From Candidatus Omnitrophota bacterium (lineage in GTDB: Bacteria > Omnitrophota > Gorgyraeia > Gorgyraeales > Gorgyraeaceae), in contig JAUSEX010000040.1 of NCBI GenBank assembly GCA_030649895.1, forward strand, positions 16,839 through 80,838: DNA of 64,000 nucleotides. Direction: 5' to 3'. This document shows, piece after piece, positions 1,829-56,459 of this stretch. A program made the position numbers and the translations under genes. Position 1 is the stretch's first letter, and every line of letters starts with the position of its first letter. A model generated the notes under the pieces. That model was not told where the DNA came from. It ran no database searches and saw only the letters and a list, made by a program, of their open reading frames with translations.

Positions 1829-4800
1829 GTGTTAAATTATAAGAATAAAATCCCAGTTAAATTAATAGCTTTTATATTAATTCAAGCATTCCTCTTAACA
1901 AGCGTAGCTTGCCCGGAATCTCTCTCTAATAAAGGCACATATAGTTTATATATGCATGGTAAAGATCTCAGGGTGCCTCTTGGTTCTTCTGATAGGATGC
2001 GAGAGGTTTTGAATAAGACAACCTCGCGAGGAGAAATAAGAGAAAAAGGCTCGCCTTTAAACCTGTTAGTATATTTAATTATGCATAAGCACTATGGGGG
2101 AAATTCTATATCTATGAGAGATTTGATAACAGCCAGGATGAATCCAGAAACAGATAAGTCATATGCTAGGAGCACTATTCGTCTTGAGATAAATAGTTTA
2201 AAGAAAATAGGCATGTTGGTGGTTGATGGTGAAGGCTTGGATGCTAGATGCGTATTAAGCGAAAAATTTACGCTTTATGATATGGCAGTTATAAATGAAG
2301 AAACCAAAAAAATAATACAAAGAGAAGGCTTGCAAGGCGAAGAGCTTGGCTTGAATAGGTATACGTTAACTGATTTAAGTGAAGAAGAAATAGGTAAAAT
2401 AAGAACAGCAGTGATAAGAGTCAAAGACAATATCAAAATGTCCAAAGAAGCTTTTAGAAGCCCTGAAAACAAAAGCCCCAGAAGAGTTTCTTATGTAAAA
2501 TATGGAAGGCAAACAAATAGTTTTATTAAGCAGTGCGTAAAAGGGGGTTTAATATTATTATGCGGGTTTATTTTCATACTTTATGCGTATCGTTGGATTG
2601 GGCCATCACAAGAGGCGCTTGATGCATTCGGAGACATCAGCGGTACTCCTGGAATAGTGCGGATGTATCAAGATGACAGGCAGCAGCAGCGTTACGAAGC
2701 AGAGCAAATCATAAAAATGCAAGCTAATGATAAAGATTTTTTGGAGACAAAAGAAACTGCGCGCGTTGAAGCGTTTTTAAAAGGCAATAGATTTGACGCA
2801 ATAAAACGCGCAGCCCAGGTGTTTGATTTAGAGCCGGAACTTATAGCCGGGTTTTTATATGAAGAAGCGATATACCAGGATACTCAAAATAAATTAGAGG
2901 TATTTACGAAAGAAAGCTTTTCCAGGTTGCTCAGTATAGGAGGTCCATACAGAGGTACGCTGGGTATGGGCCAGGTTGGCGTAGACTATATGATGAAAAA
3001 GGAATTTTTAGACTGCTTATTTGATAATATAGATTATTTTTTAACAACAGTTAAATCTGAGAGGGATCTGAAATCATTGCGTGAATTCAGGGATTTCTAT
3101 AAGCCCTGGCGTAGTCCTGGCCAGAATCACGGCGCTTTAATGGCGCATGTTCAAAGCGAACAAGGTTTAATCGTAAGTCTGGCTGATGCAGAAGAAGTAA
3201 ATATATTTGCGACAGGGTTTATTATCAGGGCAATCGCAAATCAGATTGCGGTAGATAATAAAGACGTTACTCTTATACCTAGTATGAATAGATTAAACGG
3301 TAATTCAACAAAGTGGGTTATTGTAGAATATAAAGAGATCCCGAAAGGCATGACTTCATTCGGAGATTTACTAAAGAGATACGGCGCGCCATTTTTAACA
3401 AGTTATTACCCTGCTTTAATGCCAGTCTTTGCTGATGCGCAGCGTTATTCAGGCGGAGATGAGAATTATTCCGCGAGAGGGCTCAGTAAAGTCGGAGCGT
3501 ATGAACAAATGTTAAAATGGGGTGGTTTTAAAAGAACGCCAGATCCTAAAAAATCTTTTGTTGCCCATTTCTCTCTCTATTCCAGAAGCAATAGCCTTAC
3601 CCGAGAAGGCCGTACTGACCAATTCCAGATAGGAGAAACTACCTACACAGTAGGCGAATTTAATAAAGAAGGCATAAACCAGTTAGGAGAGCCTGTAGTT
3701 ATTCCTGACCAGGACGGCCGGAATATTATTTTTACTATCCGCGGCCCGCCTGAAAAAAATAACCTAGCGGAATATCTTAGTAAGGATACATTGCTTCTGC
3801 AAGAGGCTATATTCCGCTCGCAATCCCTTTATAATGGCGGTTTAGATCAAGATATAACTATAATATTAGCTGATAAATACGATTATTTAGCAGGAGACCA
3901 CAGGCAAAATAATCTCATAATCCTGAATGCCTCAGACTTGGAAACTATGCTCCAACAAGATCAGGGCGCAATTCTTGTTTCTGAATTAATAGCCTCTTTA
4001 TTGTCGGAAGAACTTGCTCATGAAAGAGGCGCTGATGGAAAAGCTGAAACAGAAGAGAGACTGGCGCAGGATGGCGCTCATGCTACTAGATACGCTATTA
4101 CTCATAAGCCATATGCCCCTACATTATCGGAGTATATAAGTTTTCTTGAAAAGTATACATTAGAGATAAAAGAAGCTAAAGGATATTTGAGCTATTTGAA
4201 GGTGATGAATAGATATCAGGACATGGAATGGACCAGAAAGTTCTCTAAATTAGTTGCGGAGAGAAACGTATGTGTATTCCATATGGAGAATGCGCTTTCC
4301 AGGCAAATCCTGGACAATCTTTACAATAGATTTTTACAAAAAGGCTATACGAAAAAGGCAGCGGAATTTGCTGTTGGCCGCATTGCTCAGCTTACTATGG
4401 CAGGGGGCCTTGGGAATATAAAAAGGGAATTAGGAGATTCATGGAGTGAAAAAGGTGTTAATCCGAAATCTTTTAATCTGCTTTACGGTAGGTGGATTAA
4501 AGGTGTTGGCAATATAGATCAGTCTCTTGTGGGCACGGTATTAGAAACCATGGGGGATTCCCAGTTTAAATTTAAGACAAAGATTTTTAATAGAGATAAT
4601 GTTAATGAGGAGATAGAGGTAGAGGTAACTATATATAGAGATCCGTTTTCTCCATCAAATTACTGGATATACTGCCCGGAAATATTTGACGGGGCATACC
4701 CTGATAATAAGGTTCATCTTGCGCAGCAGCTTCTTTTGTATCGTAAAGCGAGCTTGGAATATCTATTATATCTCCACTCAAAAGGAGAAATTAAAGATAA

Positions 4801-7800
4801 ATTTTTATTCAGCTTGAGCGAGGTGTATACAGCTTTGTTAATCCCGGATGTAATCGAAGACGAATATAGTAATAACCCTGTTCTTAAAGATATATTTATA
4901 CATCATTATAACCATACTGTTGTAGCTGCCGGCATGCCTAAACTACCTCAGTTTTTATACGACATTTTACATATAAAAGAAAAATATAGAAATTCTGTAG
5001 TGCAGTATGGGGAGATAGTTTTGGCGGATCTTATTGGCCAGGGCTCAGATGAAATAACCGGCTGTTCGATGAAACATACAAAGGTGTTGAGAGAAAATAA
5101 TATGGCGAAATTTAAGGATAAAATATCTGATAATATAACTGAGGCAAATAGCGAGGGTGCGTATATAGATAACTGGCAGGACGAAGAAATGCAGAAAGCT
5201 TACGAAAGATATTTTTTAATGCTTGAGGCGACTGATGATGAAGATTTGTTTAAAAAGTTGGACGAAAATCAAGATATTCGTGAAAGATTTACAAAAGATA
5301 TGCTGCTTGCCAAAGAAAGGCAGAAGCAAGTTTTTAAAGAATGGCAAATTTCTTATGGCATTAAGTTAGAAGATGGGCTTAAGTCAGCGTCCCTTACCAG
5401 GAGAATGGTGCCTTATAAGAGATTAGATGTAATCACTGCTATGCTTGGCATAGGAAGTTATATGAATCAATTGAGGGAATTCAAGATAGGGTTTTTTGTG
5501 GGAGGAAGGCATTTTGATATAGACCAATCAGATTTTGGTATAACCCAGCTAAATGTTATTAATAAGATATCAGAAAGAGAACCAGGGTATATTGCTACGG
5601 TTCCTGATAATACCGACTACCCAGGTTATAATATTTTCAATGCCCATAATATTTATGAAGGGGTAGATGCGACTATCATGCTTTCCGATGAAGATTTAGA
5701 AGCAGGGCCGACAAGTCCCAGTAAGGGCCTGGTGAACGGAGCTATTATAATAGCTACTCCGGATGGAGTCATGTCAGAGCTTTTAATAGATTTTAACGAA
5801 GATTCTGTAAATGGGAATGGCTTTAGAGTAGAGTATTACGATCCAGATATTCAAAATATGGTTAGCGATTTTATAAAAGCAGTTGATCCAATATCTAAAG
5901 AGGAAATCCTTGAAAAAGGAAGGAATGGCAGCACACATTTTGCTTTTAATATTTCAAGAGGAATGGTTTATGCTGAATCTATAGGTTTAAAAGGATTTTT
6001 TGATACACAAAATAGATTATTATTTGACAGGGTGACTATATTCAATGCCCCGGAAGATTATATTAATTATATGCTCTGCTTATTTAATGGCGTGAAAGGG
6101 GCAGAAGAGATTATAGCGTGGCTTACGAACTTGAGAGACAATAAAGAATTAGAAGCGTATGAAAAATATTCAGACGTAAAGTCTTTCTTAATAGAAATAC
6201 TTGGTGCAAGGCGAGAGCCTACCATAAAAACTTTATTTAAGGCATTAAAGGGATTCAATGATGCATGGAACGATCCTGAAAAGAAAAACAGATTATTCTA
6301 CAATGCATTTAAGACAGGGATGCTTAAAGCCAATACCTCAACGCACCAGGGCCCTGGGCTGATAAAACTCTTGGAAGAAGGTTTGGAAAGAAAACAACCT
6401 GAAAAAGCAGCTAAGAGCGCGCTTATAGATTTCTTGGATAGCCATAAGGATATTTTTATTAAGTTTGAAGAAGCGGATTTGGATGTGCAAAAACTTATAG
6501 AAAGAGGCAAGGAATTTACGGTTGTTATGCTTGATGGGGATAGTATCAAGAAACGTAATGAGGCTTTTGGAAAAAGTATTGTGGATTGGATGCTCCTTGA
6601 GATGATAGCCTCATTCCATGAAACCGCTAAATTGCTGGATAAAGGCCCATTTAAGATTAATATGAAAGTTTTTCGAAGAGGTGGAGATGAGTTTGGTTTT
6701 ATTATTCAAGCAGATGGGCTTAATGATTTTGATGTAAAGGCGATTCTTGAAATTGTGCGCATAGGGTTGTTTGCAAAAATAAAGTCTAAATATGGCTTAT
6801 TTATTATTGACGCAGAAGGCTTGGCAGAGGAAGACAGGACTAATATTATAGATGAATTGAAGAAAGAAAGAATAGTCAAGGAGACTGAAGAGGTTGGAAA
6901 TAGCATTAATGTTTTATATGCCAAGGATAAGGAAGGTGGAACAGGTCGCATTAAGGATAAAATAGGCATAGCCAAGGTTACAGAAATAGAAGACGAATTT
7001 ATTCTCACGGGTTCTATAGGCGGCTGTTATGTCAATCAAGCAGTGCAGAATGGCATTAAAAGAGAAAATAAAGAAATAAATTTAAACAGCATAATGGCGG
7101 GTGTTAATTATTCTCTATTAAAGGCAAAAGAGGTTAGCATGATGCCTGGCGAAAGCGGGAGAAGAAAAGGGAATAGGATTTACTTATTTAGCGCCAGAGA
7201 ATCAGGTGAAGTAAGTGCTGAAGAATGGTTCCATGATATAGACAAGGTCTCCTCCTCCAGCATATTTAAAGACAGAGGCAGACAGGAAGAGATGGAGCGA
7301 TTATTTATTGCCAGCGAAATTCCAGAAGATAAGCGGGATAATCAAGTTTCGATTGTCTATAACGAGCAAGCGCTCAGGCGAATGATCCAGAACGATCCGG
7401 TCGGTATACTTATGGCTATTGATGCGCTCTGGGCAAATCCAGAGTTTGATAAAAAGTCTCAAGCAGCCAGTCGGGCAGGAGAAATTCATAAAGCGAGGAG
7501 CTATCTTAAAAATTTCTATAAATTTGGAATGTTAAACGATACGCTTCCGGAAAAGATGTATGATGCGGACTGGGTAATCAAGGTTTTTGGTTATACAATC
7601 AAAGAGGAAATAGAAAAGGTTTTTGGAAGAGGTTTTGAAGTAATAATAGCGCGAGCGCCTCCAGGCCAATCACCTGAAAGATTTTTAATCTGGATTAGGC
7701 CAGCTGAAGAAGAAAAACTTACAATAGATAATTTAGGCGAACTTATTACTGGAATAGCCAGTAAGATCTCAGATGACACTATACTTGAACCTTCCATTGC

Positions 7801-9436
7801 TGTAACAGTAACGCCTATCCAGCGTACCATAGGTCGTACTTTTGAAATCATTGATAATCTGAGCAAATTATATATAAGTTATCCTTCAAATAAAATGGAT
7901 ATAGCTGTGGCAAACAAATTTGAAGGAACTTTTCTTGAAGAAGGCGAGAATGTAAGAATTACTAAAGACGGGCATAGTATTGTTTTTTATGATGGGGGCA
8001 ATGAGCAGGAAACCAGAATACCAAGATTTATTGAATTACAAAGAGTCTATGCCTTAGAGGCGTTGCGAGCTAGTATACCTGAAAGGAAAGAAGTTTACGA
8101 TAGGACGCTCAGGAGGCTTTATGCTGATATTGAGGATATACCGAGAGATTCAGAAGAGGCTAAAAATATTATCCCAGATGGAATAGATTTTAGTGAAGCT
8201 CGGCAGAAAATAATAAATGCAATAAAACACAAAAGAACGCCGGATAAAGCAGCGGCCAGAGGTAATGTTTCTGCAGCAATGTTAAATGACACAATAAGGC
8301 CCTTGCTTGTACTTTTAGAAAATTCGGAATCTGCTTTTGATCTTCATACGCTTCTTGGTTTCTTTCAAGATTTGGAGGCAAATCCAGCCTTATCTGACCC
8401 AGAGGATATGAATTTATTTAGATTAGAAATGGATAAACTTTCAAGCAAAGCAAAAGTAAGAATCGCTTATAATATGGAAATGCTAAAAAATGAAAAGAAT
8501 GCGGATTTTCCTAAGTTGAGGTCAGTTTTTAATATACCTGAATTTTATGAATACGAGATCTTGGCGCAATTAAGCATAATTCCGTATATGGCTACTTATA
8601 CTTCTTCGATAAATGAGATTGCCGCTATAGCTGATAATCGCGGAGGATTTAGATTAGCAGGAAAACCTGTCGAAGAAAACGATGGTTATGTTTTTAGATT
8701 TCTGAAAGACGGGAAAAAATATGAAGTTTTCTTAGCGAAAAATTTTGATTTAAGATTAAGAGATAATTTAGAAGAGCTATTTGTACCCAATAAAAATGTA
8801 AACCCTGTTATGACAAACTTAGACAGTCTTTCTGAGATTTGGTCGATTTTTATAAAGTTTTATTTAATGGCGTTAGGTTTGGAGGAAGAGGATGAATCAG
8901 ACGGAATTGATTTTAATGGAAAAAGTTTAATATTTGTTGGCGCGGAAACCCCGGAAATCCCTTTGCAAATCGCTCGACAATTTCCTCTATCTCGAGTAAT
9001 AGTCGTTAACCCAAAGTGGGAAACAAAAAAAGGCGGCAATATTATTGTGATAGGAGACGAGGTTCAGCAGCTTGCAAAATATAAAGATGAGATTGGAATG
9101 GTAGATTTTGTTTTCTCGTCAGGACTTTTTAACATGGAATGGTCAAGGTTTGTTGTAGATGCTCAGAATGATTCTAAAAGCGTATATGAAAGAATGATGA
9201 GTCCTCTGGTTGAGATTTTATCTCCTGATGGCATAATGATTATTTCTGAGGGCCCAAAAGTGCCATCTATAAAGAGCAAGTTAGAAGAAGCGATCCAAGC
9301 CGTGGGCCTGAGAATTTTTAATGAAGAGATCGACATCGGCAAAGACGGAGGCATATATATTATTCGTAGAGCGAATTTAAGAAATGAGATTTTGGAGCGG
9401 AATGATTCCATACAAGCTGTTCAGTCAGGATTATAA
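1829..9436 (+). CDS. Giant membrane-anchored multidomain protein (2535 aa), function unknown; contains a GGDEF-like palm motif and a C-terminal Rossmann/SAM-MTase-like module
   Basis: Uninterrupted 7.6 kb ORF in 40% GC DNA. GTG start with an AAGGTG SD. N-terminal hydrophobic anchor (aa 9-28) and a second TM (aa 238-258). At nt ~6518-6790 the segment VVMLDGDSIKKRNEAFGKS...FRRGGDEFGFII resembles the GGDEF diguanylate-cyclase core. At nt ~8894-9254 LIFVGAETP...VDFVFSSGLF...LSPDGIMIIS resembles class I MTase motifs I-III but without a glycine-rich loop. Confidence 0.6.
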   Translation: MLNYKNKIPVKLIAFILIQAFLLTSVACPESLSNKGTYSLYMHGKDLRVPLGSSDRMREVLNKTTSRGEIREKGSPLNLLVYLIMHKHYGGNSISMRDLITARMNPETDKSYARSTIRLEINSLKKIGMLVVDGEGLDARCVLSEKFTLYDMAVINEETKKIIQREGLQGEELGLNRYTLTDLSEEEIGKIRTAVIRVKDNIKMSKEAFRSPENKSPRRVSYVKYGRQTNSFIKQCVKGGLILLCGFIFILYAYRWIGPSQEALDAFGDISGTPGIVRMYQDDRQQQRYEAEQIIKMQANDKDFLETKETARVEAFLKGNRFDAIKRAAQVFDLEPELIAGFLYEEAIYQDTQNKLEVFTKESFSRLLSIGGPYRGTLGMGQVGVDYMMKKEFLDCLFDNIDYFLTTVKSERDLKSLREFRDFYKPWRSPGQNHGALMAHVQSEQGLIVSLADAEEVNIFATGFIIRAIANQIAVDNKDVTLIPSMNRLNGNSTKWVIVEYKEIPKGMTSFGDLLKRYGAPFLTSYYPALMPVFADAQRYSGGDENYSARGLSKVGAYEQMLKWGGFKRTPDPKKSFVAHFSLYSRSNSLTREGRTDQFQIGETTYTVGEFNKEGINQLGEPVVIPDQDGRNIIFTIRGPPEKNNLAEYLSKDTLLLQEAIFRSQSLYNGGLDQDITIILADKYDYLAGDHRQNNLIILNASDLETMLQQDQGAILVSELIASLLSEELAHERGADGKAETEERLAQDGAHATRYAITHKPYAPTLSEYISFLEKYTLEIKEAKGYLSYLKVMNRYQDMEWTRKFSKLVAERNVCVFHMENALSRQILDNLYNRFLQKGYTKKAAEFAVGRIAQLTMAGGLGNIKRELGDSWSEKGVNPKSFNLLYGRWIKGVGNIDQSLVGTVLETMGDSQFKFKTKIFNRDNVNEEIEVEVTIYRDPFSPSNYWIYCPEIFDGAYPDNKVHLAQQLLLYRKASLEYLLYLHSKGEIKDKFLFSLSEVYTALLIPDVIEDEYSNNPVLKDIFIHHYNHTVVAAGMPKLPQFLYDILHIKEKYRNSVVQYGEIVLADLIGQGSDEITGCSMKHTKVLRENNMAKFKDKISDNITEANSEGAYIDNWQDEEMQKAYERYFLMLEATDDEDLFKKLDENQDIRERFTKDMLLAKERQKQVFKEWQISYGIKLEDGLKSASLTRRMVPYKRLDVITAMLGIGSYMNQLREFKIGFFVGGRHFDIDQSDFGITQLNVINKISEREPGYIATVPDNTDYPGYNIFNAHNIYEGVDATIMLSDEDLEAGPTSPSKGLVNGAIIIATPDGVMSELLIDFNEDSVNGNGFRVEYYDPDIQNMVSDFIKAVDPISKEEILEKGRNGSTHFAFNISRGMVYAESIGLKGFFDTQNRLLFDRVTIFNAPEDYINYMLCLFNGVKGAEEIIAWLTNLRDNKELEAYEKYSDVKSFLIEILGARREPTIKTLFKALKGFNDAWNDPEKKNRLFYNAFKTGMLKANTSTHQGPGLIKLLEEGLERKQPEKAAKSALIDFLDSHKDIFIKFEEADLDVQKLIERGKEFTVVMLDGDSIKKRNEAFGKSIVDWMLLEMIASFHETAKLLDKGPFKINMKVFRRGGDEFGFIIQADGLNDFDVKAILEIVRIGLFAKIKSKYGLFIIDAEGLAEEDRTNIIDELKKERIVKETEEVGNSINVLYAKDKEGGTGRIKDKIGIAKVTEIEDEFILTGSIGGCYVNQAVQNGIKRENKEINLNSIMAGVNYSLLKAKEVSMMPGESGRRKGNRIYLFSARESGEVSAEEWFHDIDKVSSSSIFKDRGRQEEMERLFIASEIPEDKRDNQVSIVYNEQALRRMIQNDPVGILMAIDALWANPEFDKKSQAASRAGEIHKARSYLKNFYKFGMLNDTLPEKMYDADWVIKVFGYTIKEEIEKVFGRGFEVIIARAPPGQSPERFLIWIRPAEEEKLTIDNLGELITGIASKISDDTILEPSIAVTVTPIQRTIGRTFEIIDNLSKLYISYPSNKMDIAVANKFEGTFLEEGENVRITKDGHSIVFYDGGNEQETRIPRFIELQRVYALEALRASIPERKEVYDRTLRRLYADIEDIPRDSEEAKNIIPDGIDFSEARQKIINAIKHKRTPDKAAARGNVSAAMLNDTIRPLLVLLENSESAFDLHTLLGFFQDLEANPALSDPEDMNLFRLEMDKLSSKAKVRIAYNMEMLKNEKNADFPKLRSVFNIPEFYEYEILAQLSIIPYMATYTSSINEIAAIADNRGGFRLAGKPVEENDGYVFRFLKDGKKYEVFLAKNFDLRLRDNLEELFVPNKNVNPVMTNLDSLSEIWSIFIKFYLMALGLEEEDESDGIDFNGKSLIFVGAETPEIPLQIARQFPLSRVIVVNPKWETKKGGNIIVIGDEVQQLAKYKDEIGMVDFVFSSGLFNMEWSRFVVDAQNDSKSVYERMMSPLVEILSPDGIMIISEGPKVPSIKSKLEEAIQAVGLRIFNEEIDIGKDGGIYIIRRANLRNEILERNDSIQAVQSGL

Positions 9437-14500: not shown

Positions 14501-14580
14501 AAAATAGGGAAAATAGGGACAGCGCCCATTTATTATTTATTTTTTATAGCATAAAAATGGGCGCTGTCCCTATTTTAGGA
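14501..14580. repeat. Family B palindromic repeat (copy 1 of 2), also terminator-like
   Basis: AAATAGGGACAGCGCCCATTT - 23 nt AT-rich loop - AAATGGGCGCTGTCCCTATTT, preceded by a GAAAATAGGG duplication; near-identical copy at 56262-56337. Confidence 0.7.
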
Positions 14581-25178: not shown

Positions 25179-26450
25179 GTGTTTCATTTACTCGTATCAG
25201 ATAAATCAGGCAAGATATTCGATATTCCAGAGCTGGAAGCCGCAGGGATGAAGGCAGGTCATTTTTTCAAGCCCGACAGAGAAGAATTTATTAAACTTCC
25301 GGAAGCCAGCAAACTTTTTATGCTGCCTGAAAGAATACCTGTGGGATACGATAGTATTAGCGGAAAATGCAGGGCGCTGGAAAATTATTTTGCGGTAGCC
25401 GCGTTTATAGCGCCGGGATTTACAGGCACTTATAGCGCTGCTCATGAACTTATCCGACTCCGTGAGTCGCCGTACGGCGACTCACGGAGTCGGAATAAGG
25501 CGCTCCCGCTTTTCTGTTACACCGCAGCTGGTTTTTATAAAGGGGATATCTATGTTGCTGCAGTCAGGGTAGACAGGTCAAGCAGGCATGATCCGAGACT
25601 CATAAATATCAAACTCGTAGCTAAAAATATAATAAAAATAAAAAAGTTATTTCCCGCTAACAGGCTTATCAGGCATCTAGAAGGCTGCGCTATGATCCAT
25701 GGCTGTCCAGGCGCGCAGAATTTTTTCTTATCAAGAGAGGAATGCCCTTTACCCGTATCTCCTTCCTGCAACGCAAGCTGCGCAGGATGTATCTCATTAA
25801 AGACGCAGCCAAGGATAAAATTTACGCCTTCTCCGGAAGAAATAGCAGAGACAGCTTTATTTTATATTCGTAATGTTACAGCAGGGGGCGGTCGCAACCG
25901 CCCCCTGCTTAGTTTCGGCCAGGGATGCGAAGGCGAACCTTTGATGGAGGCTGATTTAATTGAAAAATCAATAAGGTTGATCAGAGGCAAAACCGATAAG
26001 GGCGCTATAAATATCAATACAAACGCCTCTAGGCATGAGGCGATAGCCAGGCTGTTTGATGCGGGGCTGGATAGCATCAGGGTCAGCATGAATAGCGCCA
26101 GGAAAGAATATTACGAAAGGTATTATAAACCCAGGGGGTATGGTTTTGAGGATGTATTATCGTCTATAAGAATAGCTAAACAGAAAAAAGGTTTTGTGTC
26201 AATTAATTATTTAACTATGCCTGGGTTTACGGATTCTGAGGATGAATTTGCAGCGTTTAAGAAATTTATAGAGGCTTACAGGATAGATATGATCCAATGG
26301 CGCAACCTGAATTTTGACCCTCTTCATTACTTTAAGATCATGAAATACTATGGCCGGCCTTCTGCCATGATAGGCGTCAGGCAATTGATAGTCTCCCTGA
26401 AAAAATCTTTCCCCGCCCTCAAGATGGGCTACTATAACCCGTTTTTATAA
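25179..26450 (+). CDS. Radical SAM domain protein carrying an in-frame palindromic repeat insertion
   Basis: CxxxCxxC motif (SPSCNASCAGCISL) and a TIM-barrel-like downstream region. The family A palindrome at 25453-25494 is read in-frame as IRLRESPYGDSRSRN. Confidence 0.6.
   Translation: MFHLLVSDKSGKIFDIPELEAAGMKAGHFFKPDREEFIKLPEASKLFMLPERIPVGYDSISGKCRALENYFAVAAFIAPGFTGTYSAAHELIRLRESPYGDSRSRNKALPLFCYTAAGFYKGDIYVAAVRVDRSSRHDPRLINIKLVAKNIIKIKKLFPANRLIRHLEGCAMIHGCPGAQNFFLSREECPLPVSPSCNASCAGCISLKTQPRIKFTPSPEEIAETALFYIRNVTAGGGRNRPLLSFGQGCEGEPLMEADLIEKSIRLIRGKTDKGAININTNASRHEAIARLFDAGLDSIRVSMNSARKEYYERYYKPRGYGFEDVLSSIRIAKQKKGFVSINYLTMPGFTDSEDEFAAFKKFIEAYRIDMIQWRNLNFDPLHYFKIMKYYGRPSAMIGVRQLIVSLKKSFPALKMGYYNPFL
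25449..25498. repeat. Family A palindromic element (copy 1 of 4), inside a CDS
   Basis: 42-nt perfect palindrome TCCGACTCCGTGAGTCGCCG-TA-CGGCGACTCACGGAGTCGGA with TTAT/ATAA flanks. Confidence 0.85.
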
Positions 26451-29526: not shown

Positions 29527-31044
29527 ATGTCTAAAAAACATATTATAAAATCAGCCGGGACGATAGGGTTCGCCACAGTGATAAGCAGGGTGCTGGGCTT
29601 TGTGAGGGATATTATCATTGCCAGGTATTTTGGCACAGCCAGGTATGCCGAGGCTTTTGTAGTCGCGTTCCGTATACCGAATATGTTAAGAGATCTGGTG
29701 GGAGAAGGCGCCACGAATGCGGCTTTTGTGCCTGTCTTAAGCGAATATGCGGTGAAGAAAAAAGAAGAGTTCTGGGAACTGGCCAATGTTATATTAAATC
29801 TGTTGCTTGTGACGCTTTCCGCTATAACCGTTGCCGGCATTTTTGCTTCGCCATGGATTGTCAGATTTATGGCCCCGGGTTTTTTGGATGATCCTGAAAA
29901 ATTCGCAATAACAGTAAAGCTGACGCGCCTGATGTTCCCTTATATACTTCTTATCGGCCTGACTGCTTACACAATGGGCGTATTGAATTCTCTAAAGCAT
30001 TTTTCAGCGCCTGCGTTCGGGCCGTGTCTCCTTAATATAGCGATAATAATATGCGCGATCATTTGGGGTGAAAGCGTGATGGGCCTAGTGAGCGGCGTTT
30101 TAATAGGCGGGATACTGCAGCTTGCGGTACAGATACCGGTCTTATATAAAAAAGGTTTCAAGTTTTCGTTTGCAATAAAATTAAACCACCCGGCTGCAAA
30201 TAAAATAGGGACCCTGATGTTGCCACGCGTTATCGGCTCATGCATGTATCAGTTAAACCTGTTTATAAACACTATTTTAGCGTCTTTATCCGGCGTGGTG
30301 GGTTCAGGAGGGGTTGCGGCGCTTTATTATGCAAACAGGATTTTCCAATTTCCTCTGGCCATATTCGGGATTGCAATAGCTCAGGCAGCATTGCCTACCA
30401 TGTCCAGAGAGGCGCTGGAAAAAGAACCGGATAAATTAAAGCTCACGCTTTCTTTTTCATTAAGGGTTATAAATTTTATTATTATTCCAGCCTCAATCGG
30501 TCTTATAGTTCTGGCGGTTCCAATAACGAAAACCTTGTTTGAAAGAGGAAAGTTTGACCAATATTCAACTTTAATTACAGCTAATGCGCTTGTCTTTTAT
30601 TCCATAGGCCTTTTCAGTTATTCCGGGATAAAGATACTTGTAAGTTGTTTTTATTCTCTGCAGGATACGCTTACTCCGGTAAAGATTGCAGGCGCATCGC
30701 TTCTCCTGAATATAGCGCTTAATCTGGCGCTGATGTTTCCTTTAAAGATAGGCGGGTTGGCGCTCGCCGCCTCTATTTCCGGGATTTTTAATTTTTTAGC
30801 GCTTTTTTTTATATTAAGAAATAAGATAGGGCCTCTGGATGGCCGCAGGATACTGAATTCTTTTCTAAAGGTGCTATTGGCAAGCCTGGCAATGGCCGCG
30901 GTTATTTATATATGCGCTTTTAAAATAAACCTGAACCTTTTTATTGTGATATTAATAGCTATGCTAAGCTATGTCGGCGCAACGTTTATTTTTGATGTAA
31001 AAGAGGCGAAGGAATTTTTGTCATGGGCGTCAACGAGAAAATGA
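29527..31044 (+). CDS. murJ: Lipid II flippase MurJ/MviN
   Basis: GFATVISRVLGFVRDIIIARYFGTARYAEAFVVAFRIPNMLRDLVGEGA is the MurJ N-terminal signature; 505 aa polytopic. Confidence 0.85.
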   Translation: MSKKHIIKSAGTIGFATVISRVLGFVRDIIIARYFGTARYAEAFVVAFRIPNMLRDLVGEGATNAAFVPVLSEYAVKKKEEFWELANVILNLLLVTLSAITVAGIFASPWIVRFMAPGFLDDPEKFAITVKLTRLMFPYILLIGLTAYTMGVLNSLKHFSAPAFGPCLLNIAIIICAIIWGESVMGLVSGVLIGGILQLAVQIPVLYKKGFKFSFAIKLNHPAANKIGTLMLPRVIGSCMYQLNLFINTILASLSGVVGSGGVAALYYANRIFQFPLAIFGIAIAQAALPTMSREALEKEPDKLKLTLSFSLRVINFIIIPASIGLIVLAVPITKTLFERGKFDQYSTLITANALVFYSIGLFSYSGIKILVSCFYSLQDTLTPVKIAGASLLLNIALNLALMFPLKIGGLALAASISGIFNFLALFFILRNKIGPLDGRRILNSFLKVLLASLAMAAVIYICAFKINLNLFIVILIAMLSYVGATFIFDVKEAKEFLSWASTRK

Positions 31045-32336
31045 AGCTCCGCGGGTTAAAACCTTCAATTTCCTGTAGCGAATGTATAAAAGATATCCCG
31101 CACCTCCCAGGGGTTTATATTATGAAGGATGCTTCCGGAGAGGCCATTTATATAGGCAAGGCCAAAGACCTTTTTAAAAGGGTGTCCAGCTATTTTCAGG
31201 AATCAAGGCCCAGGACGGCAAAGCTTATATCGTTGTTGGAGAAAGTAAAAGGCCTGGATTACGTGGTTACCGGTTCGGAAGAAGAGGCTCTTATATATGA
31301 AGCGAGCCTGATAAAGGAGAAAAAACCGAGATATAATGTTGAATTAAAAGACGACAAGACCTTCCCTTTTTTAAAAATTGGATTAAACGAAAAGTTCCCG
31401 AGGCTTACCATAACAAGAAAAAAAATAGACGATGGTTCTAGGTACTTTGGGCCTTATACAAAGGTGGGGCTTTTAAGAAACGCTGTAGGCATATTGAAGA
31501 ATATATTTCCTATGCGAATCTGCAAGAGAATGCCCGGCGAGGTATGCCTGGCTTACCATATAGGGCAATGCATGGGCCCGTGCGTGAATAAAGTGGATGA
31601 AGAATCATATAGCGCAATAGTCAGGCAGCTGATTTTATTTCTGGAAGGCAAAAAAACAATATTGATACAGGAATTAACGGACAATATGAAAAGGTTTGCC
31701 GATAAAAAAGATTTTGAGCGGGCTGCAATCATGCGCAACAGGCTGTCAGCCCTTTTGGAGGTATCTGACAGAAAAACAGCCGATTATAGCTCGTGGGGGA
31801 ATGTCGCTTTAAAATTAAAGAAAATCCTGAAGTTAGCTAGCCTGCCGCTAAGGATAGAGGCGTTTGACGTTTCGAATATATCCGGCAAAGAAGCTACTGG
31901 TTCGATGGTTTATTTTAATAACGGCGTGCCGGATAAATCAAATTACAGAAAATTCAGGATAAAAAACGTAAAAGGCGTTGATGATTACGCTATGATGAAA
32001 GAGATTGTCCGCAGAAGGTATAAAAGATTAAAGGAAGAGAACGTAAAATTTCCGGATCTTGTTATAATAGACGGCGGAAAAGGCCATTTGGCCGCAGCGC
32101 ATGAGGAGCTTCTGAAATTAAATCTTAGCCATGTGCCTGTAATAGGCATCGCCAAGCAGGAGGAAAAGATATATACGCTCGATTCATCAAAGCCGCTTGA
32201 TATAAACAGAGACTCGGAGATGTTGCATTTTATACAAAGCGTAAGGGACGAGGCGCACAGGTTTGCGTTGAAGTATCACCACGTTCTTCGCCACAACAAC
32301 TTTACAAATTCCGACTTCGCGAGTCGCCGCAGGTAG
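31041..32336 (+). CDS. uvrC: Excinuclease ABC subunit C, C-terminally short form (no HhH tail)
   Basis: GIY-YIG domain (GVYIMKDASGEAIYIGKAKDLFKRVSSYF), UVR motif, RNase H-like endonuclease region up to DEAHRFA. The gene then ends with a 10-aa tail (TNSDFASRRR) encoded by a family A palindrome; the ~130-aa (HhH)2 region is absent. ATGA overlap with the murJ stop. Confidence 0.7.
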   Translation: MKLRGLKPSISCSECIKDIPHLPGVYIMKDASGEAIYIGKAKDLFKRVSSYFQESRPRTAKLISLLEKVKGLDYVVTGSEEEALIYEASLIKEKKPRYNVELKDDKTFPFLKIGLNEKFPRLTITRKKIDDGSRYFGPYTKVGLLRNAVGILKNIFPMRICKRMPGEVCLAYHIGQCMGPCVNKVDEESYSAIVRQLILFLEGKKTILIQELTDNMKRFADKKDFERAAIMRNRLSALLEVSDRKTADYSSWGNVALKLKKILKLASLPLRIEAFDVSNISGKEATGSMVYFNNGVPDKSNYRKFRIKNVKGVDDYAMMKEIVRRRYKRLKEENVKFPDLVIIDGGKGHLAAAHEELLKLNLSHVPVIGIAKQEEKIYTLDSSKPLDINRDSEMLHFIQSVRDEAHRFALKYHHVLRHNNFTNSDFASRRR

Positions 32337-32354
32337 GCGACTCACGGAGTCGGA
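32310..32354. repeat. Family A palindromic element (copy 2 of 4), spanning the uvrC stop codon
   Basis: TCCGACTTCGCGAGTCGCC-GCAGGTA-GGCGACTCACGGAGTCGGA; the two arm mismatches are C/T transitions compatible with G-U pairing in RNA. Confidence 0.8.
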
Positions 32355-32365
32355 TAGGTACGATA

Positions 32366-32665
32366 ATGGCAAAAGAATTGACACTTTTTGAAGAAAAGGT
32401 ATATACTGTGGTAAAGAAAATACCTTTCGGAGAGGTGAGGTCCTATGCGTGGGTAGCTAAAAAGGCCGGAAGGCCGGCAGCTGCCAGGGCAGTAGGCAAC
32501 GCCCTTAATAAAAATCCCTTTCCTGTTGCAGTCCCATGCCACAGGGTGGTGCATTCAGACGGCTCTATTGGAGAATACGCATTTGGCTGGGATTTGAAAA
32601 GTAGATTATTGGAGACAGAGGATGCTTTCAGAAATAAAGGTAAAATTAAAAGACGCAGAAATTAA
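32366..32665 (+). CDS. ogt: Methylated-DNA-protein-cysteine methyltransferase
   Basis: PCHRVV active-site motif and a winged-helix DNA-binding region; 99 aa. Confidence 0.8.
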
Positions 32666-33719
32666 ACTAACGGATTTAAAGCTGTATCTGAGCGTAGATA
32701 AGAACGAAATCAGGCTTAAAGAATTAGAAACTCAGCTTGCGAATCCGGGTTTCTGGGATGACCAGGAGAAATCGAGGCCTGTTATCCAGGAGTTAAAAGC
32801 GGCGCGCGCCATACTGGATCCTTATTTTGAAGTCAGGAAAGAACTTGATGAGCTTGGGGAGCTGGCTGTTGTGCTTGATGAAGAGGACAAAGGTTCGATA
32901 AGAGAGGTTTTGGAAGCCCTGGACAGGCTAGCTAAAAAATTGGAAGCCCTGGAATTTAAAAGCCTTTTAAACAGTGAAAGCGATATGAGCAATGCTATCG
33001 TCAGCATACATTCAGGCGCAGGCGGGACTGAGTCCTGCGATTGGGCCAGTATGCTTTTAAGGATGTATTCGATGTGGGCTGAAAAAAAAGGTTATAAGAT
33101 TGAAATGATTGATATGCTGCAGGGCGAAGAGGCGGGCTTGAAAAGCGTGGATCTTATAATAACAGGGCCTTATGCGTACGGGTATCTTAAGTCGGAAAAA
33201 GGTGTGCATAGGCTTGTCAGGATTTCCCCTTTTGACTCTAATAAAAGGCGGCATACGTCTTTCGCGTCCGTGGATGTTATCCCGGAAATTGCAGACGATA
33301 TAGTGATAGAGATAAATGAAACGGATTTAAAGATCGATACTTACAGGGCAGGAGGCAAGGGCGGGCAGAATGTAAACAAATTGGAAACCGCGGTCAGGAT
33401 TACGCATGTTCCTACGGGTATCGTTGTGCAGTGCCAGAAGGAAAGGTCTCAGTTTAAAAATAAAACCCTTGCGATGAAGGTGTTGAAGGCAAAGCTTTAC
33501 GAACTGAAGATGGATGAAAAGAAAAAAGAACTGGAAAAAGAATACGCCAAGAAACAGAAGATAGAATGGGGAAGCCAGATACGCTCGTATGTTATGCACC
33601 CGTATTCAATGATAAAGGACCACAGGACCGAACACGAGACGTCTAACGTTGATGCGGTAATGAGCGGCGAGTTGGACGAATTTATGGAAACATTTTTAAA
33701 ATGGAAGGTAAACAACTAG
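32622..33719 (+). CDS. prfB: Peptide chain release factor 2
   Basis: SPF tripeptide ([15 protein letters not shown]), GGQ motif ([11 protein letters not shown]). The contiguous ORF needs no programmed +1 frameshift. 44-nt overlap with the ogt 3' end. Confidence 0.85.
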
Positions 33720-33758: not shown

Positions 33759-36533
33759 ATGATTAATTGGATATTGAGCAAGTTTATAGGAACGCAGAAT
33801 GAACGTGAGATCAAAAGGCTGAAACCTCTGGTAGATAAGATAAATTCTTTCGAACCGCAGGTTCAGAAACTTCCTGACTCAGAACTGCGCCGGAAAACAG
33901 ATGAGTTTCGCAAAAGGCTGGCGGGCGGGGAGACTGTAGACGATATTTTACCCGAAGCTTTCAGCGTAGTGCGGGAGGTATCGAAGCGCACAGTCCGCAT
34001 GAGACATTTCGATAACCAGCTTATCGGCGGCATAGTATTGCATCAGGGAAAAATCAGCGAGATGGCGACGGGAGAAGGAAAAACCCTGGTCGCGACTCTG
34101 CCCGCTTATCTAAATGCCTTGAGCGGGAAAGGCGTTCATATAATAACCGTTAATGATTATCTTGCGCACAGGGACAGAGACTGGATGGGCCCGATATATG
34201 AATTTTTGGGGCTTACGGTAGGGGTTATACAGCATGATATGGATCCGCAGCTGAGGCAGATTGCCTATGGAAGCGACATTACTTACGGTACGAATAATGA
34301 ATATGGTTTTGACTATCTAAGGGACAACATGGTTGTCAGGAAAGAGGAGATGGTCCAGCGCGAATTGAATTATGCGATCGTGGACGAGGTAGACAGCATT
34401 CTTATAGACGAGGCGCGTACCCCGCTTATTATCTCAGGGCCTTCGGACGAGTCCACTGATAAGTATTATATTTGCGATAAAATCGTGCCGAGACTCAAAG
34501 GACGGATTATTTTAGAAAAAGATGAGATAGACGCAAAATTTAAAGGCATAGACCTGTCAAAAGGCTATGATTACATTGTAGATGAAAAAGCGAACACGGC
34601 GCATCTTACGGAAGACGGAGAGATTAAAGCGGCTAAAATGCTCGGCGTGGATAACATGCATGATATAGCTACCATGGAATACCGTCATCACATGATCCAG
34701 GCCTTGAAGGCTCATAATCTTTTTGATAAGGATGTAGATTATGTCGTAAAAGACGGCGAGGTTATTATCGTGGATGAATTTACGGGCCGCTTGATGCCGG
34801 GGAGAAGATGGTCCGATGGCCTTCATCAGGCGATAGAGGCAAAAGAAGGGATGAAAATAGAGAGAGAAAATCAGACGCTTGCCACAATCACATTTCAGAA
34901 TTATTTCAGGATGTATAAAAAACTCGCTGGCATGACAGGCACTGCAATGACAGAGGCCGGAGAATTCAGCCACATTTATAAATTGGATACAGTCTCGATA
35001 CCTACTAACAGGCCTTTAATAAGATTAAATCATCCGGATGTTATTTATAAAACGGAAAAAGAAAAATTTAACGCAGCGTGTAACGAGATAGAGGAACTAT
35101 ATAAGAAGGGAAGGCCGGTTCTGGTGGGGACTATCTCAATAGAAAAGTCAGAACGCATGAGCTCTATTTTAAAAAGGCGCGGGATCCCGCATAATGTCTT
35201 AAATGCAAAATATCACGAGATGGAAGCGACTATCGTGGCTCAGGCGGGAAGGCTGGGCGGGGTTACCATTGCCACGAATATGGCGGGCCGCGGGACAGAT
35301 ATTTTACTCGGCGGAAATCCCGAATTCATGGTCAATGACTGGATGAAGGCAAAAGGCGTGGGGCCTAAAGACGTGAGCCTGGAGGAGCGCGAGAAATGGC
35401 TGGTTGAGGCGAGAGAAAAAGTAAAAGAAGAACACGACAAGGTTGTGGGCTTGAGCGGGCTGCATATCATGGGAACCGAACGCCATGAATCCCGTCGCGT
35501 GGACAATCAGCTACGAGGCCGTTCAGGCAGGCAGGGCGATCCGGGCTCGTCTAAATTTTATATATCTTTAGAGGATGACCTGATGCGGCTTTTTGGGTCG
35601 GACAGGATCTCTTCGATTTATGACAGGCTTGGCATAGAAGAGGGCCAGGATATCCAGCACCCTCTTATAAGCAGGGCTATCGAGGTTGCCCAGAAAAGGG
35701 TTGAGCAGCATAATTTTGATATTCGTAAACATGTGCTTGAATATGATAACGTGATGAATAAACAGAGAGAGGTTATTTACGAAGAGAGAAAAAAAATTCT
35801 GACGGGCGATAATGCCAGAGAGCATATTTATGAGATAGTAGAAGAAGTCCTGGATGATGCGATAGTTACTTATATGAATCCTGATATGCACAAGGCTGAT
35901 TGGAAATATGCGGAATTCAATGAGTGGCTCTGGTCAAAGTTCAATATAAGGATACAGGATATGGAAGAAATAACGGAAGGAAAAGATTCCGAAGCTATCC
36001 TGGACTATTTTATAGAAATAGTAAAGTCAGCATACGTGGAAAAAGAAAAAAATATGCCGCCTGGTTTAATGACGCATATTGAAAAGATGATCATGCTGCA
36101 GGTTATTGACACAAAATGGAAAGACCATCTTCACGCAATGGATATCCTCAGGGAAGGGATAGGCCTCAGGGCGTATGGCCAGCGCGACCCGCTCATAGAG
36201 TATCAGCACGAAGGCTATGACATGTTTATGGCAATGATAGAAAGCGTAAAACATGAGACGATAGAATTTTTATTTAAGGTTCAGGCGGCGAGAGAAGAAA
36301 GTCCTATAAGAGGCGTGTTCCAGTCTTTGCCGCGGGAATTTATAAAGTCAGAAGCAGCCCCGATGTCTAAAATTCCTGCGCCCCAGGTGCAAAGAGGAGA
36401 GGATTTTAAGGAAGGGCTTAACGAAGAACGCCCGTCGGTGGAACAGTATAAACGTTCTGAGTTAAAAGTTGGCCGTAATGACCCATGCACGTGCGGCAGC
36501 GGCAAAAAATATAAAAAATGCTGTGGGAAATAA
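33759..36533 (+). CDS. secA: Preprotein translocase ATPase SecA
   Basis: 924 aa; SecA N-terminal motor motifs and a C-terminal zinc-binding [15 protein letters not shown]. Confidence 0.95.
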
Positions 36534-36542
36534 TTTTACCTG

Positions 36543-36586
36543 TCCGACTCCTTGAGTCGCCCCTCATGGCGACTCAAGGAGTCGGA
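36543..36586. repeat. Family A palindromic element (copy 3 of 4), secA-lnt intergenic
   Basis: TCCGACTCCTTGAGTCGCC-CCTCAT-GGCGACTCAAGGAGTCGGA; a CGTG to CTTG change in one arm is mirrored by CACG to CAAG in the other. Confidence 0.85.
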
Positions 36587-36596
36587 TATAGGTCAT

Positions 36597-49914: not shown

Positions 49915-49941
49915 CAGGGAACGGTTTAAAACCGTTCCCTG
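49915..49941 (+). promoter_or_regulatory. Perfect 13-bp stem hairpin between ruvA and ruvB
   Basis: CAGGGAACGGTTT-A-AAACCGTTCCCTG; no T-run follows; ruvB ATG 18 nt downstream. Confidence 0.4.
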
Positions 49942-54279: not shown

Positions 54280-54747
54280 ATGCGAGTAGGCATCGGTTAT
54301 GATATTCACAGGCTTGTGGAAGGCAAGCCGCTTATGCTGGGAGGCGTTGAGATACCGCATATAAAAGGGTTGGAAGGGCATTCTGACGGAGATGCGCTTC
54401 TCCACGCAATATGCGACGCGATTTTAGGGGCAGCTGGCCTGGATGACATAGGCTATCAATTTCCCGTGAATGATAACAGGTATTTAAATATATCAAGTTT
54501 AGAGCTTTTAAAAGAGGTTTCAGAAAAAATAAATAAGAAAGGCTTCAAGGTGGAATATGTGGATTCCGTGATTATACTGGAAGAGCCAAAGATAGCGCCT
54601 TTCAAGGATAATATGAAAAGAGAGATTGCGGCTGCGCTGGGCATCGGCGTTGATGTCATAAGCGTAAAAGCCACTACCCAGGAGGGCGTTGGCGCGATAG
54701 GAAGAGGCGAAGCGCTCGCAGCGTACGCAGTCGCGTGCCTGGTTTAA
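54280..54747 (+). CDS. ispF: 2-C-methyl-D-erythritol 2,4-cyclodiphosphate synthase
   Basis: MRVGIGYDIHRL ... GHSDGDALLHAICDAILGA zinc-binding motifs; GAGGTG SD then ATG at 54280. Confidence 0.9.
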   Translation: MRVGIGYDIHRLVEGKPLMLGGVEIPHIKGLEGHSDGDALLHAICDAILGAAGLDDIGYQFPVNDNRYLNISSLELLKEVSEKINKKGFKVEYVDSVIILEEPKIAPFKDNMKREIAAALGIGVDVISVKATTQEGVGAIGRGEALAAYAVACLV

Positions 54748-54750
54748 CCT

Positions 54751-54794
54751 ATCCGACTCCGTGAGTCGCCGTGCACGGCGACTCACGGAGTCGG
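54751..54794. repeat. Family A palindromic element (copy 4 of 4), ispF-cysS intergenic
   Basis: 44-nt perfect palindrome TCCGACTCCGTGAGTCGCCGTGCACGGCGACTCACGGAGTCGGA, followed by a GGAGG SD and the cysS GTG. Confidence 0.85.
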
Positions 54795-54806
54795 ATGGAG
54801 GTTTGC

Positions 54807-56261: not shown

Positions 56262-56337
56262 AGGAAAATAGGGACAGCGACCATTTTTTGTTGTCCTTTG
56301 TTTTTTAATTTTAAAAAAATGGTCGCTGTCCCTATAT
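56262..56337. repeat. Family B palindromic repeat (copy 2 of 2)
   Basis: AAAATAGGGACAGCGACCATTTT - 28 nt AT-rich loop - AAAATGGTCGCTGTCCCTAT; compare 14501-14580. Confidence 0.7.
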
Positions 56338-56459
56338 ACCAGAAATTTTTATGTCGTCAAGACTACTTTCGGTATAAAAAATTAGCCGTAAACCGTAGCG
56401 GACGGCAAAACTATTTCAGCGCCGAATGGCCCAAGCCCGCTCCAGAACATAGGAGCTAC

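Follow-up and report, generated by a model that had tools for sequence, protein, structure and literature searches.

What kind of element are the palindromes that lie scattered, some inside genes and some between them, over this part of the genome of a Candidatus Omnitrophota bacterium? The stretch of 64,000 nucleotides that was analyzed (contig JAUSEX010000040.1, positions 16,839 to 80,838; hereafter the window) has all its genes on the + strand and a G+C content of about 42%. Omnitrophota is an uncultivated phylum of the PVC group; its members are ultra-small and in part predatory or dependent on a host. They are known for very large proteins, and an open reading frame of 2,535 amino acids was found on the + strand at window positions 1829-9436. 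A preliminary description had reported four copies of a palindromic repeat, termed family A. Searching the window with the arm TCCGACTCCNTGAGTCGCC and allowing up to three mismatches gave exactly eight matches, which form four inverted pairs, and the number expected by chance was zero (100 dinucleotide-preserving shuffles of the window). The four dispersed palindromes are therefore real. The pairs are located at 25453-25494, 32310-32354, 36543-36586, and 54752-54795; the positions reported earlier were correct for the first three, while the fourth had been placed at 54751-54794 and has to be moved to 54752-54795, or to 54751-54796 if one extra pair is included. The inner 15-mer CGACTCCGTGAGTCG was confined to the family A doublets and occurred nowhere outside them.

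The consensus sequence for family A is (A)ACCTR-TCCGACTCCGTGAGTCGCC-loop-GGCGACTCACGGAGTCGGA-YAGGT, where the loop is 3-7 nt and most commonly GTAC. At about 36 distinct sites the palindromy was found to reach approximately 5 nt beyond each arm (ACCTR on one side and YAGGT on the other). The previously estimated extent of ~44 bp thus describes the core palindrome, whereas the full element is longer by ~5 nt per side and has a true length of ~52 bp (range 42-56 bp). Each 19-nt arm holds a small hairpin of its own, CGACTC-CGT-GAGTCG. The REP unit of family A consists of this 6-bp stem (CGACTC/GAGTCG) with the loop CGT, and two units are joined by CC-N3-7-GG. Because each arm is itself an inner palindrome, family A is built as an inverted doublet of REP-like hairpins. 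The GTAG and CGTC tags were absent from the consensus, of which ACCTR/YAGGT is the conserved flank. The whole element folds into a stem of ~24 bp, compared to 19 bp for the arms alone. The proposed folding check returned very stable hairpins, with -36.6 to -50.3 kcal/mol (z -8.3 to -10.3) for the window copies as RNA and -18.6 to -32.2 kcal/mol as DNA. Rfam at gathering thresholds gave no match in the window, and the tRNA scan found no tRNA near the family A copies.

Two of the four copies are associated with coding sequence and two are intergenic, as had been described. Copy 1 (25449..25499; CTTA-TCCGACTCCGTGAGTCGCC-GTAC-GGCGACTCACGGAGTCGGA-(A)TAAG) lies in-frame in a radical SAM gene at 25179-26450(+) and encodes ..I-RLRESPYGDSRSR-N.. 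in the 423-aa protein. Copy 2 (32310..32359) is decayed, with two left-arm substitutions, a loop of 7 nt, and an RNA hairpin of -36.6 kcal/mol. It ends a uvrC-like open reading frame (31023-32336), to which it gives the last eight codons (SDFASRRR) and the TAG stop (32334-32336), and its TAGGT (32355-32359) is located 6 nt ahead of the ATG (32366) of an MGMT-type DNA-binding gene, the arm ending 11 nt ahead of it. Both substitutions in copy 2 had been thought to preserve G-U pairing; this holds for the C>T change in left-arm position 8, which gives U.G, but the T>C change in position 11 gives a C.A mismatch on the + strand. Copy 3 (36538..36593; ACCTG-TCCGACTCCTTGAGTCGCC-CCTCAT-GGCGACTCAAGGAGTCGGA-TATAGGT) fills the spacer between secA (stop 36531-36533) and lnt (ATG 36597). 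The mirrored CTTG/CAAG change noted in this copy is present, as a compensated G>T / C>A pair. Copy 4 (54746..54803; AACCTA-TCCGACTCCGTGAGTCGCC-GTGCAC-GGCGACTCACGGAGTCGGA-TGGAGGTT) has perfect arms of 23 nt (-50.3 kcal/mol) and fills the spacer between ispF and cysS. The ispF stop codon TAA (54745-54747) overlaps the 5' end of the element, and the 3' GGAGGT is positioned 4 nt ahead of the cysS start codon GTG (54807).

Family A is not confined to the window: about 34 further distinct sites were found in Omnitrophota metagenome-assembled genomes (MAGs) and in metagenomes. The pattern used to scan the genome collection, CCGACTYCNYGAGTCGCC, was too degenerate and gave chance single-arm matches in GC-rich genomes, so only two-arm matches were usable. 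Among the matches listed, true two-arm palindromes occurred only in the Omnitrophota MAGs JBAZEP and PEUD. A scan of viral contigs gave no family A match. In the metagenomes, a scan for the exact 19-mer, by which intact arms are favoured, retrieved 41 loci. The palindrome was complete in about 35 of these, and 37 flank clusters were left once orthologous places had been merged. The two bases adjoining the arms covary (TG/CA, TA/TA, GT/AC, and AA/TT). Since these flanks are inverted complements and not direct repeats, family A lacks a target-site duplication; the duplication and the TA insertion dinucleotide that had been suggested as a check were both looked for and neither was found. No locus with the arms separated by a gene was found among the exact 19-mer matches, the longest centre being 33 nt. 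This centre belongs to a long-centre subfamily with GACAC/GTGTC-type arms at L120 3989-4059 and 4442-4512; the two copies have oppositely oriented centres, are 450 nt apart, and both lie within one apparent membrane-protein open reading frame. At the Der/EngA site two near-identical contigs (L108 3557-3597 and L153 2277-2317) are identical over 160 nt except for the loop, which reads GAA in one contig but TTC in its counterpart. Either the palindrome centre has truly flipped or the difference arose during assembly.

About half of the family A sites are in-frame inside conserved genes, in line with the resemblance to Rickettsia palindromic elements proposed in the preliminary description. The open reading frame continues through the element in 16 distinct host genes, with Pfam domains that span the element or stand on either side of it. 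The hosts are AlaS (alaS), QueA (queA), IspG (ispG), a type II secretion (T2SS) ATPase, DprA (dprA), a papain-like (C1) peptidase, a GltD-like oxidoreductase, ComEC (comEC), glycosyltransferases of two kinds (GT2 and GT4/GT1), a Nuo-like subunit, Der/EngA (der), KsgA (ksgA), radical SAM+DUF6873, Fmt (fmt), and the radical SAM protein of the window. Two of the three frames are open on both strands of family A and only these two stop-free frames are used. The resulting peptides, SDSVSR..ATHGVG or (I/V)RLRESP..GDSRSR, are short and hydrophilic (SDSVSRRTATHGVG or RLRESPYGDSRSR), and because family A is palindromic either orientation yields the same ones. In alignments to solved IspG, AlaS, and KsgA the element peptide falls in a variable loop, and the net gain in length is just 5-6 aa, so the insertion boundaries are not fixed by these homologues. 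Every loop length from 3 to 6 nt was found among the in-frame copies.

The radical SAM protein of the window matches MDO8603215.1 of a Candidatus Omnitrophota MAG with full identity. Homologues cover 100% of the open reading frame with copy 1, which is a real gene, and most of them lack the copy 1 insert. The insert corresponds to residues 91-113, which have a pLDDT below 50 and are located between two strands in the AlphaFold model. A second in-frame palindrome, unrelated to family A, was observed in the same gene at window positions 25879-25909 (CAGCAGGGGGCGGT-CGCA-ACCGCCCCCTGCT); it encodes approximately AGGGRNRP, is missing from most homologues and patchy in the others, and has a pLDDT below 50 at residues 235-240. 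Its core recurs inside the Der gene of L108 and L153, which makes it a member of another dispersed family.

Pairing in family A has been kept as the copies diverged. In a fixed-column alignment of 41 copies, with loops N-padded, the long hairpin was 89% paired compared to 32-40% in slid-partner controls. Sixteen of its 24 stem pairs have changed on both sides, a number reached by none of 500 shuffles, and 6 of the 12 pairs of the inner hairpins have done likewise. The earlier proposal that pairing is maintained agrees with these figures. Mismatches on the sense strand comprised 10 G.U and 7 A.C; with these numbers constraint at the RNA level and at the DNA level are inseparable.

The same sites were found filled in contigs with flanks that are just 74-85% identical, i.e., in the genes for radical SAM, papain-like peptidase, GT2, and ComEC and in one spacer. 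As orthologous sites are filled despite this low flank identity, the insertions are old and vertically inherited. The radical SAM site was sampled by protein homology and is therefore free of arm-sequence bias. One compensated pair was present at this site in L163 and four in L161, while L162 differs in 10 of 19 arm positions and still keeps 18 Watson-Crick pairs and one G.U pair. The inner palindrome of L162 is still perfect through coordinated changes at four positions at once. L164 carries a 30-nt remnant of family A left by deletion and L166 is empty. In L165 and L167 the loop that matches window positions 25449-25499 contains unrelated palindromes, one of which consists of two tandem CCTCTCCCC-CGT-GGGGAGAGG hairpins, the other being ATGTACACCCCGTAGGTG..CACCTACGGGGTGTACAT. 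Filled, differently filled, and empty states interleave on the radical SAM neighbour-joining tree, and this pattern indicates a probable hot spot with turnover, not a single gain. The loop is too variable for the ends of the insertion to be defined from filled and empty sites.

A transposase gene was found in association with family A. When E. coli RayT (b0228) was used as tblastn query against 351 kb of Omnitrophota DNA, the single match was in L126. The open reading frame is IS200-like, has 211 aa, and scores 27.5 bits with Pfam Y1_Tnp (cut-off 23). The top NCBIfam model is NF047646, 'REP-associated tyrosine transposase' (REP_Tyr_transpos), with 57-62 bits; this is below the equivalog cut-off of 80 and counts against a RAYT assignment of the transposase. 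The top PDB match is TnpArep (4ER8; E 0.002), while the IS608 and ISDra2 TnpA entries have E values of about 0.3, and the HUH, WExRF, and YIHxNP motifs align with those of RayT. A complete family A palindrome is located 26 nt ahead of the transposase ATG in L126 and a second palindrome is located 3' of the gene; both L126 and L169 have family A on both sides of the transposase gene. The 3' palindrome (L126 958-1008, L169 about 885-925) was observed to have its inner loops swapped, so that ACG is the left one and CGT the right one, compared to the CGT/ACG arrangement in all 41 dispersed copies and in the 5' copy at the transposase. The swap points to a strand-specific reading of the inner hairpin.

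This transposase family is widespread in Omnitrophota, with 3,533 matches, and most clusters contain one member on 1-5 contigs, which would agree with, but does not establish, a RAYT that is single-copy and vertically inherited. Four lineages beyond L126 were compared. In L169 (89% identity to L126) family A is present on both sides, and a compensated C>T / G>A pair was found in a further, dispersed copy. L170 (77% identity) has the GACAC/GTGTC variant at the transposase, which is also dispersed in L120. L171 (69% identity) has an unrelated palindrome (GTCCACCTGCCAGGTGAGCC...) on both sides of the gene and again at a dispersed site, and L172 (Ca. Gorgyraea atricola; 62% identity) has yet another palindrome. 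The palindrome sequence thus changes with the transposase lineage, whereas the outer flanks, roughly CCYR..YRGG, are kept in all of these lineages. A conserved block, TTTTGAAAGAAAAT..ATGTGTC(T/A)TATATA, was observed ~45 nt upstream of the 5' palindrome in L126 and in all four of the other lineages; it may be the transposase promoter, in which case the palindrome would belong to the 5' UTR.

Altogether, these observations support the core of the preliminary description, a dispersed REP-like family with maintained pairing and with coding copies that resemble Rickettsia palindromic elements. We consider it likely that family A is a REPIN-type non-autonomous mobile element, dispersed most plausibly by a cognate Y1 transposase of the RAYT type. 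The assignment to REP/REPIN-RAYT systems is based on matches in anatomy, in the placement of the palindrome around a RayT-like gene, in the way the palindrome changes with lineage, in the missing target-site duplication, and in long persistence. We infer the following course of events. A tyrosine (HUH/Y1) transposase of the RAYT type would move family A by recognizing the REP hairpin in single-stranded DNA, and a single-strand mechanism of this kind would leave no target-site duplication. Copies in coding sequence would be tolerated since two frames are open on both strands and encode short hydrophilic peptides that land in protein loops. In the very short spacers of a compact genome, copies would be tolerated through a YAGGT end whose spacing to the following start codon is that of a Shine-Dalgarno sequence. 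Copies would then pass vertically over long periods with their palindromy maintained.

Several points count against this assignment. Some 50% of the family A sites are intragenic, although according to published work REPINs lie outside genes almost without exception (bioRxiv 10.1101/2021.07.10.451892), the GTAG/CGTC tag is missing, and no transposase homologue was found within the 64-kb window. The small net gain in the solved homologues, together with in-frame loops of 3-6 nt, also has to be counted against the best explanation, as do the interleaved states on the radical SAM tree, which a hot spot with turnover explains only in outline. An autonomous IS200-type element with miniature derivatives may alternatively be the source of the copies.

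The copies outside coding sequence raise the question of a function for the host. All family A sites that are not in-frame fill short stop-to-start spacers. The upstream stop codon is found 3-13 nt ahead of the arm or within the element, and the stem starts within the ribosome footprint of this stop codon. In 13 of the 17 intergenic copies the start codon follows 9-14 nt past the arm, which corresponds to 4-8 nt past AGG(T). Since stop and start both adjoin the element, family A makes up nearly the whole spacer. YAGGT pairs with ACCTR in the predicted fold of the intergenic copies, and because the ends are ACCTR and YAGGT, a Shine-Dalgarno-like motif comes with each insertion and is masked by a stem of ~24 bp. 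L137 is syntenic with window positions 32148-33137, and an element precedes the gene in L137 where there is none in the window. The CAGGT of this element is the sole Shine-Dalgarno-like motif near the ATG in L137, while the counterpart in the window has its own Shine-Dalgarno sequence; in this comparison, in which the 5' flank is incomplete, the 3' CAGGT arrives with the element.

Two further palindromes were observed between genes of the window. 'Family B' is present at 14506-14576 and 56263-56340, with the sequence GGAAAATAGGGACAGCG(C/A)CCATTT, 23-24 AT-rich nt, and AAATGG(G/T)CGCTGTCCCTAT. Both copies are intergenic, directly past stop codons (14470 and 56225), and differ by one compensated pair; no copy was found among 172 related loci. 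A hairpin with a 13-bp stem, CAGGGAACGGTTT-A-AAACCGTTCCCTG, is located at 49915-49941 between the end of one open reading frame (49896) and the start of another (49959).

From the arrangement of stop codon, stem, and start codon the intergenic copies might serve as portable cassettes for translational coupling or mRNA processing. Separately, in-frame insertion and replacement at hot spots, driven by a RAYT, might regularly supply new loop variants to essential proteins of Omnitrophota. An example is the loop of the radical SAM protein, where at least three unrelated palindromes occur across lineages, with the second palindrome elsewhere in the same gene. We regard both proposals as speculative and unlikely.

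A related explanation takes such a role as the origin of the family: the repeats would be cis-regulatory RNA of the host, an intercistronic hairpin that stabilizes or processes mRNA (e.g., through RNase III) or masks the Shine-Dalgarno sequence for translational coupling, and that is selected for function and not for selfish spread. The stability of the hairpins (-37 to -50 kcal/mol), the filling of the whole stop-to-start spacer with a YAGGT that is paired to ACCTR 4-8 nt ahead of the start, the reliance of L137 on the AGGT of the element as Shine-Dalgarno sequence, and the persistence of orthologous copies with compensatory changes agree with it. However, no intercistronic role is possible for the half or so of the sites that lie in unrelated housekeeping genes, and the same palindrome flanks a transposase gene. 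G.U mismatches are not in excess of A.C on the sense strand (10 compared to 7), nor did Rfam give a match. We find this explanation quite improbable for the family as a whole. A regulatory role of some copies can be a secondary exaptation and need not explain how the family arose.

The two intergenic copies had also been called terminator- or REP-like. Of these terms REP-like stands, with the doublet structure and a RAYT-like gene flanked by the palindrome, and terminator does not. An intrinsic (Rho-independent) terminator was rejected, as the hairpin is present but has no U tract and a gene on the same strand starts ~10 nt later. No T tract was found after the family A stems, and the terminator and promoter scan called nothing at the elements.

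The MITE part of the former label 'REP/MITE-like family' was not upheld either. As a classical MITE, in the manner of Correia elements or RPE-1, family A would be a deletion derivative of a DDE-type IS that is moved via terminal inverted repeats. The arms are formally inverted repeats, the subfamily of L120 with its 33-nt centre is longer, and the in-frame insertion resembles that of RPE-1 (PMC10969869). Nevertheless, the flanking bases are inverted and not direct, without target-site duplication or TA, and far-separated arms, by which a parent IS would be seen, did not occur among the exact 19-mer matches. The hairpin inside the arm is conserved by quadruple coordinated changes, and the sole associated transposase is a Y1/HUH enzyme. 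A MITE origin is therefore very unlikely.

Least likely of all, and to be given next to no weight, is a site for binding or modification of double-stranded DNA (by a methylase of the CcrM type, by a restriction system, or by a regulator that binds as a dimer) or a bidirectional intrinsic terminator: each element does contain four GANTC motifs (GACTC/GAGTC) by direct reading and copies 3 and 4 are positioned after stop codons, but GANTC is lost and palindromy kept in the GACAC/GTGTC, ACACTT/AAGTGT, L171, and L172 variants at orthologous or RAYT-flanking sites, on which ground the GANTC/CcrM idea was rejected, the loop of 3-7 nt leaves the half-site spacing unfixed, and the stems lack a T tract, are not called by the terminator scan, and are followed at 10 nt by genes in the same orientation.

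With family A read as a REPIN-type element, REP/REPIN-RAYT systems would be extended to Omnitrophota. No repeat family described in Omnitrophota was found in open-access papers and bioRxiv, which agrees with the preliminary statement that none is described for this lineage. The copies that are translated within essential enzymes, at about half of the known sites, would constitute a natural experiment on the tolerance of proteins to inserts of 14-17 residues and on the persistence of such elements. The lineage-specific pairs of transposase and palindrome would offer a ready set for studies of hairpin recognition by Y1 transposases. For annotation, family A accounts for odd short inserts in Omnitrophota proteins and for apparent extensions of open reading frames at gene ends.

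Correia elements (NEMIS) of Neisseria and other bacterial MITEs are, like family A, small non-autonomous repeats that form mRNA hairpins near gene ends. They differ in having a length of 100-155 bp, terminal inverted repeats of 26 bp, an IHF site, and a duplication of TA, all of which family A lacks, and with target-site duplication and TA missing the earlier comparison with Correia-type repeats finds no support. The palindromic elements of Rickettsia are, like family A, selfish palindromes that occur in-frame in unrelated housekeeping genes, where they encode loop peptides, and also between genes. RPE-1 has about 100-150 bp compared to 42-56 bp for family A, and family A has no CGTC tag, whereas RPE-4 and RPE-6 are CGTC-tagged REPs. 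Elements of the RPE and CGTC REP type are without a dedicated transposase, while family A flanks a RAYT-like gene, and sequence and host lineage are unrelated.

Members of IS200/IS605 and their miniature palindrome-associated derivatives share with the system described here a hairpin-bounded Y1/HUH gene without classical terminal inverted repeats or duplications. In contrast to these, the palindromes on either side of the gene here are whole inverted doublets with the same sequence as the dispersed copies, and the protein matches RayT models better than the TnpA of IS608 and ISDra2 (E 0.002 compared to ~0.3).

The closest parallels were found among REP systems, whose defining features were taken from bioRxiv 10.1101/2021.07.10.451892, bioRxiv 10.1101/119735, and PMC3733652. 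Intragenic REP dimers with the partners 1-2 bp apart are documented and are most numerous in Opitutus terrae, a PVC bacterium (PMC3733652). The GTAG-17/GTAG-19 REP dimers of this organism (Di Nocera et al., 2013; PMC3733652) have, as family A, a PVC host and partners a few bases apart, many copies within open reading frames that encode short peptides, including tRNA synthetase and DNA repair genes, and REP ends that supply stop codons. Family A differs in its distinct sequence without GTAG, in termini that resemble a Shine-Dalgarno sequence, and in an intragenic fraction that appears higher in a biased sample. Compared to the REPIN-RAYT systems of Pseudomonas fluorescens SBW25 and E. coli (REP/BIME, RayT/TnpArep, PDB 4ER8), family A is shorter (~52 bp with a spacer of 3-7 nt, REPINs being ~100 bp), has the flank CCTR/YAGG and no GTAG tag, and is intragenic at about half of its sites; the transposase has 211 aa and a score under the NCBIfam RayT cut-off, and the host phylum is Omnitrophota. 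In common with these systems, family A is an inverted doublet of REP hairpins with a variable spacer, its dispersed copies share their sequence with those flanking a Y1/HUH transposase gene, the palindrome changes with the transposase lineage, and the copies persist vertically over long periods without target-site duplication.
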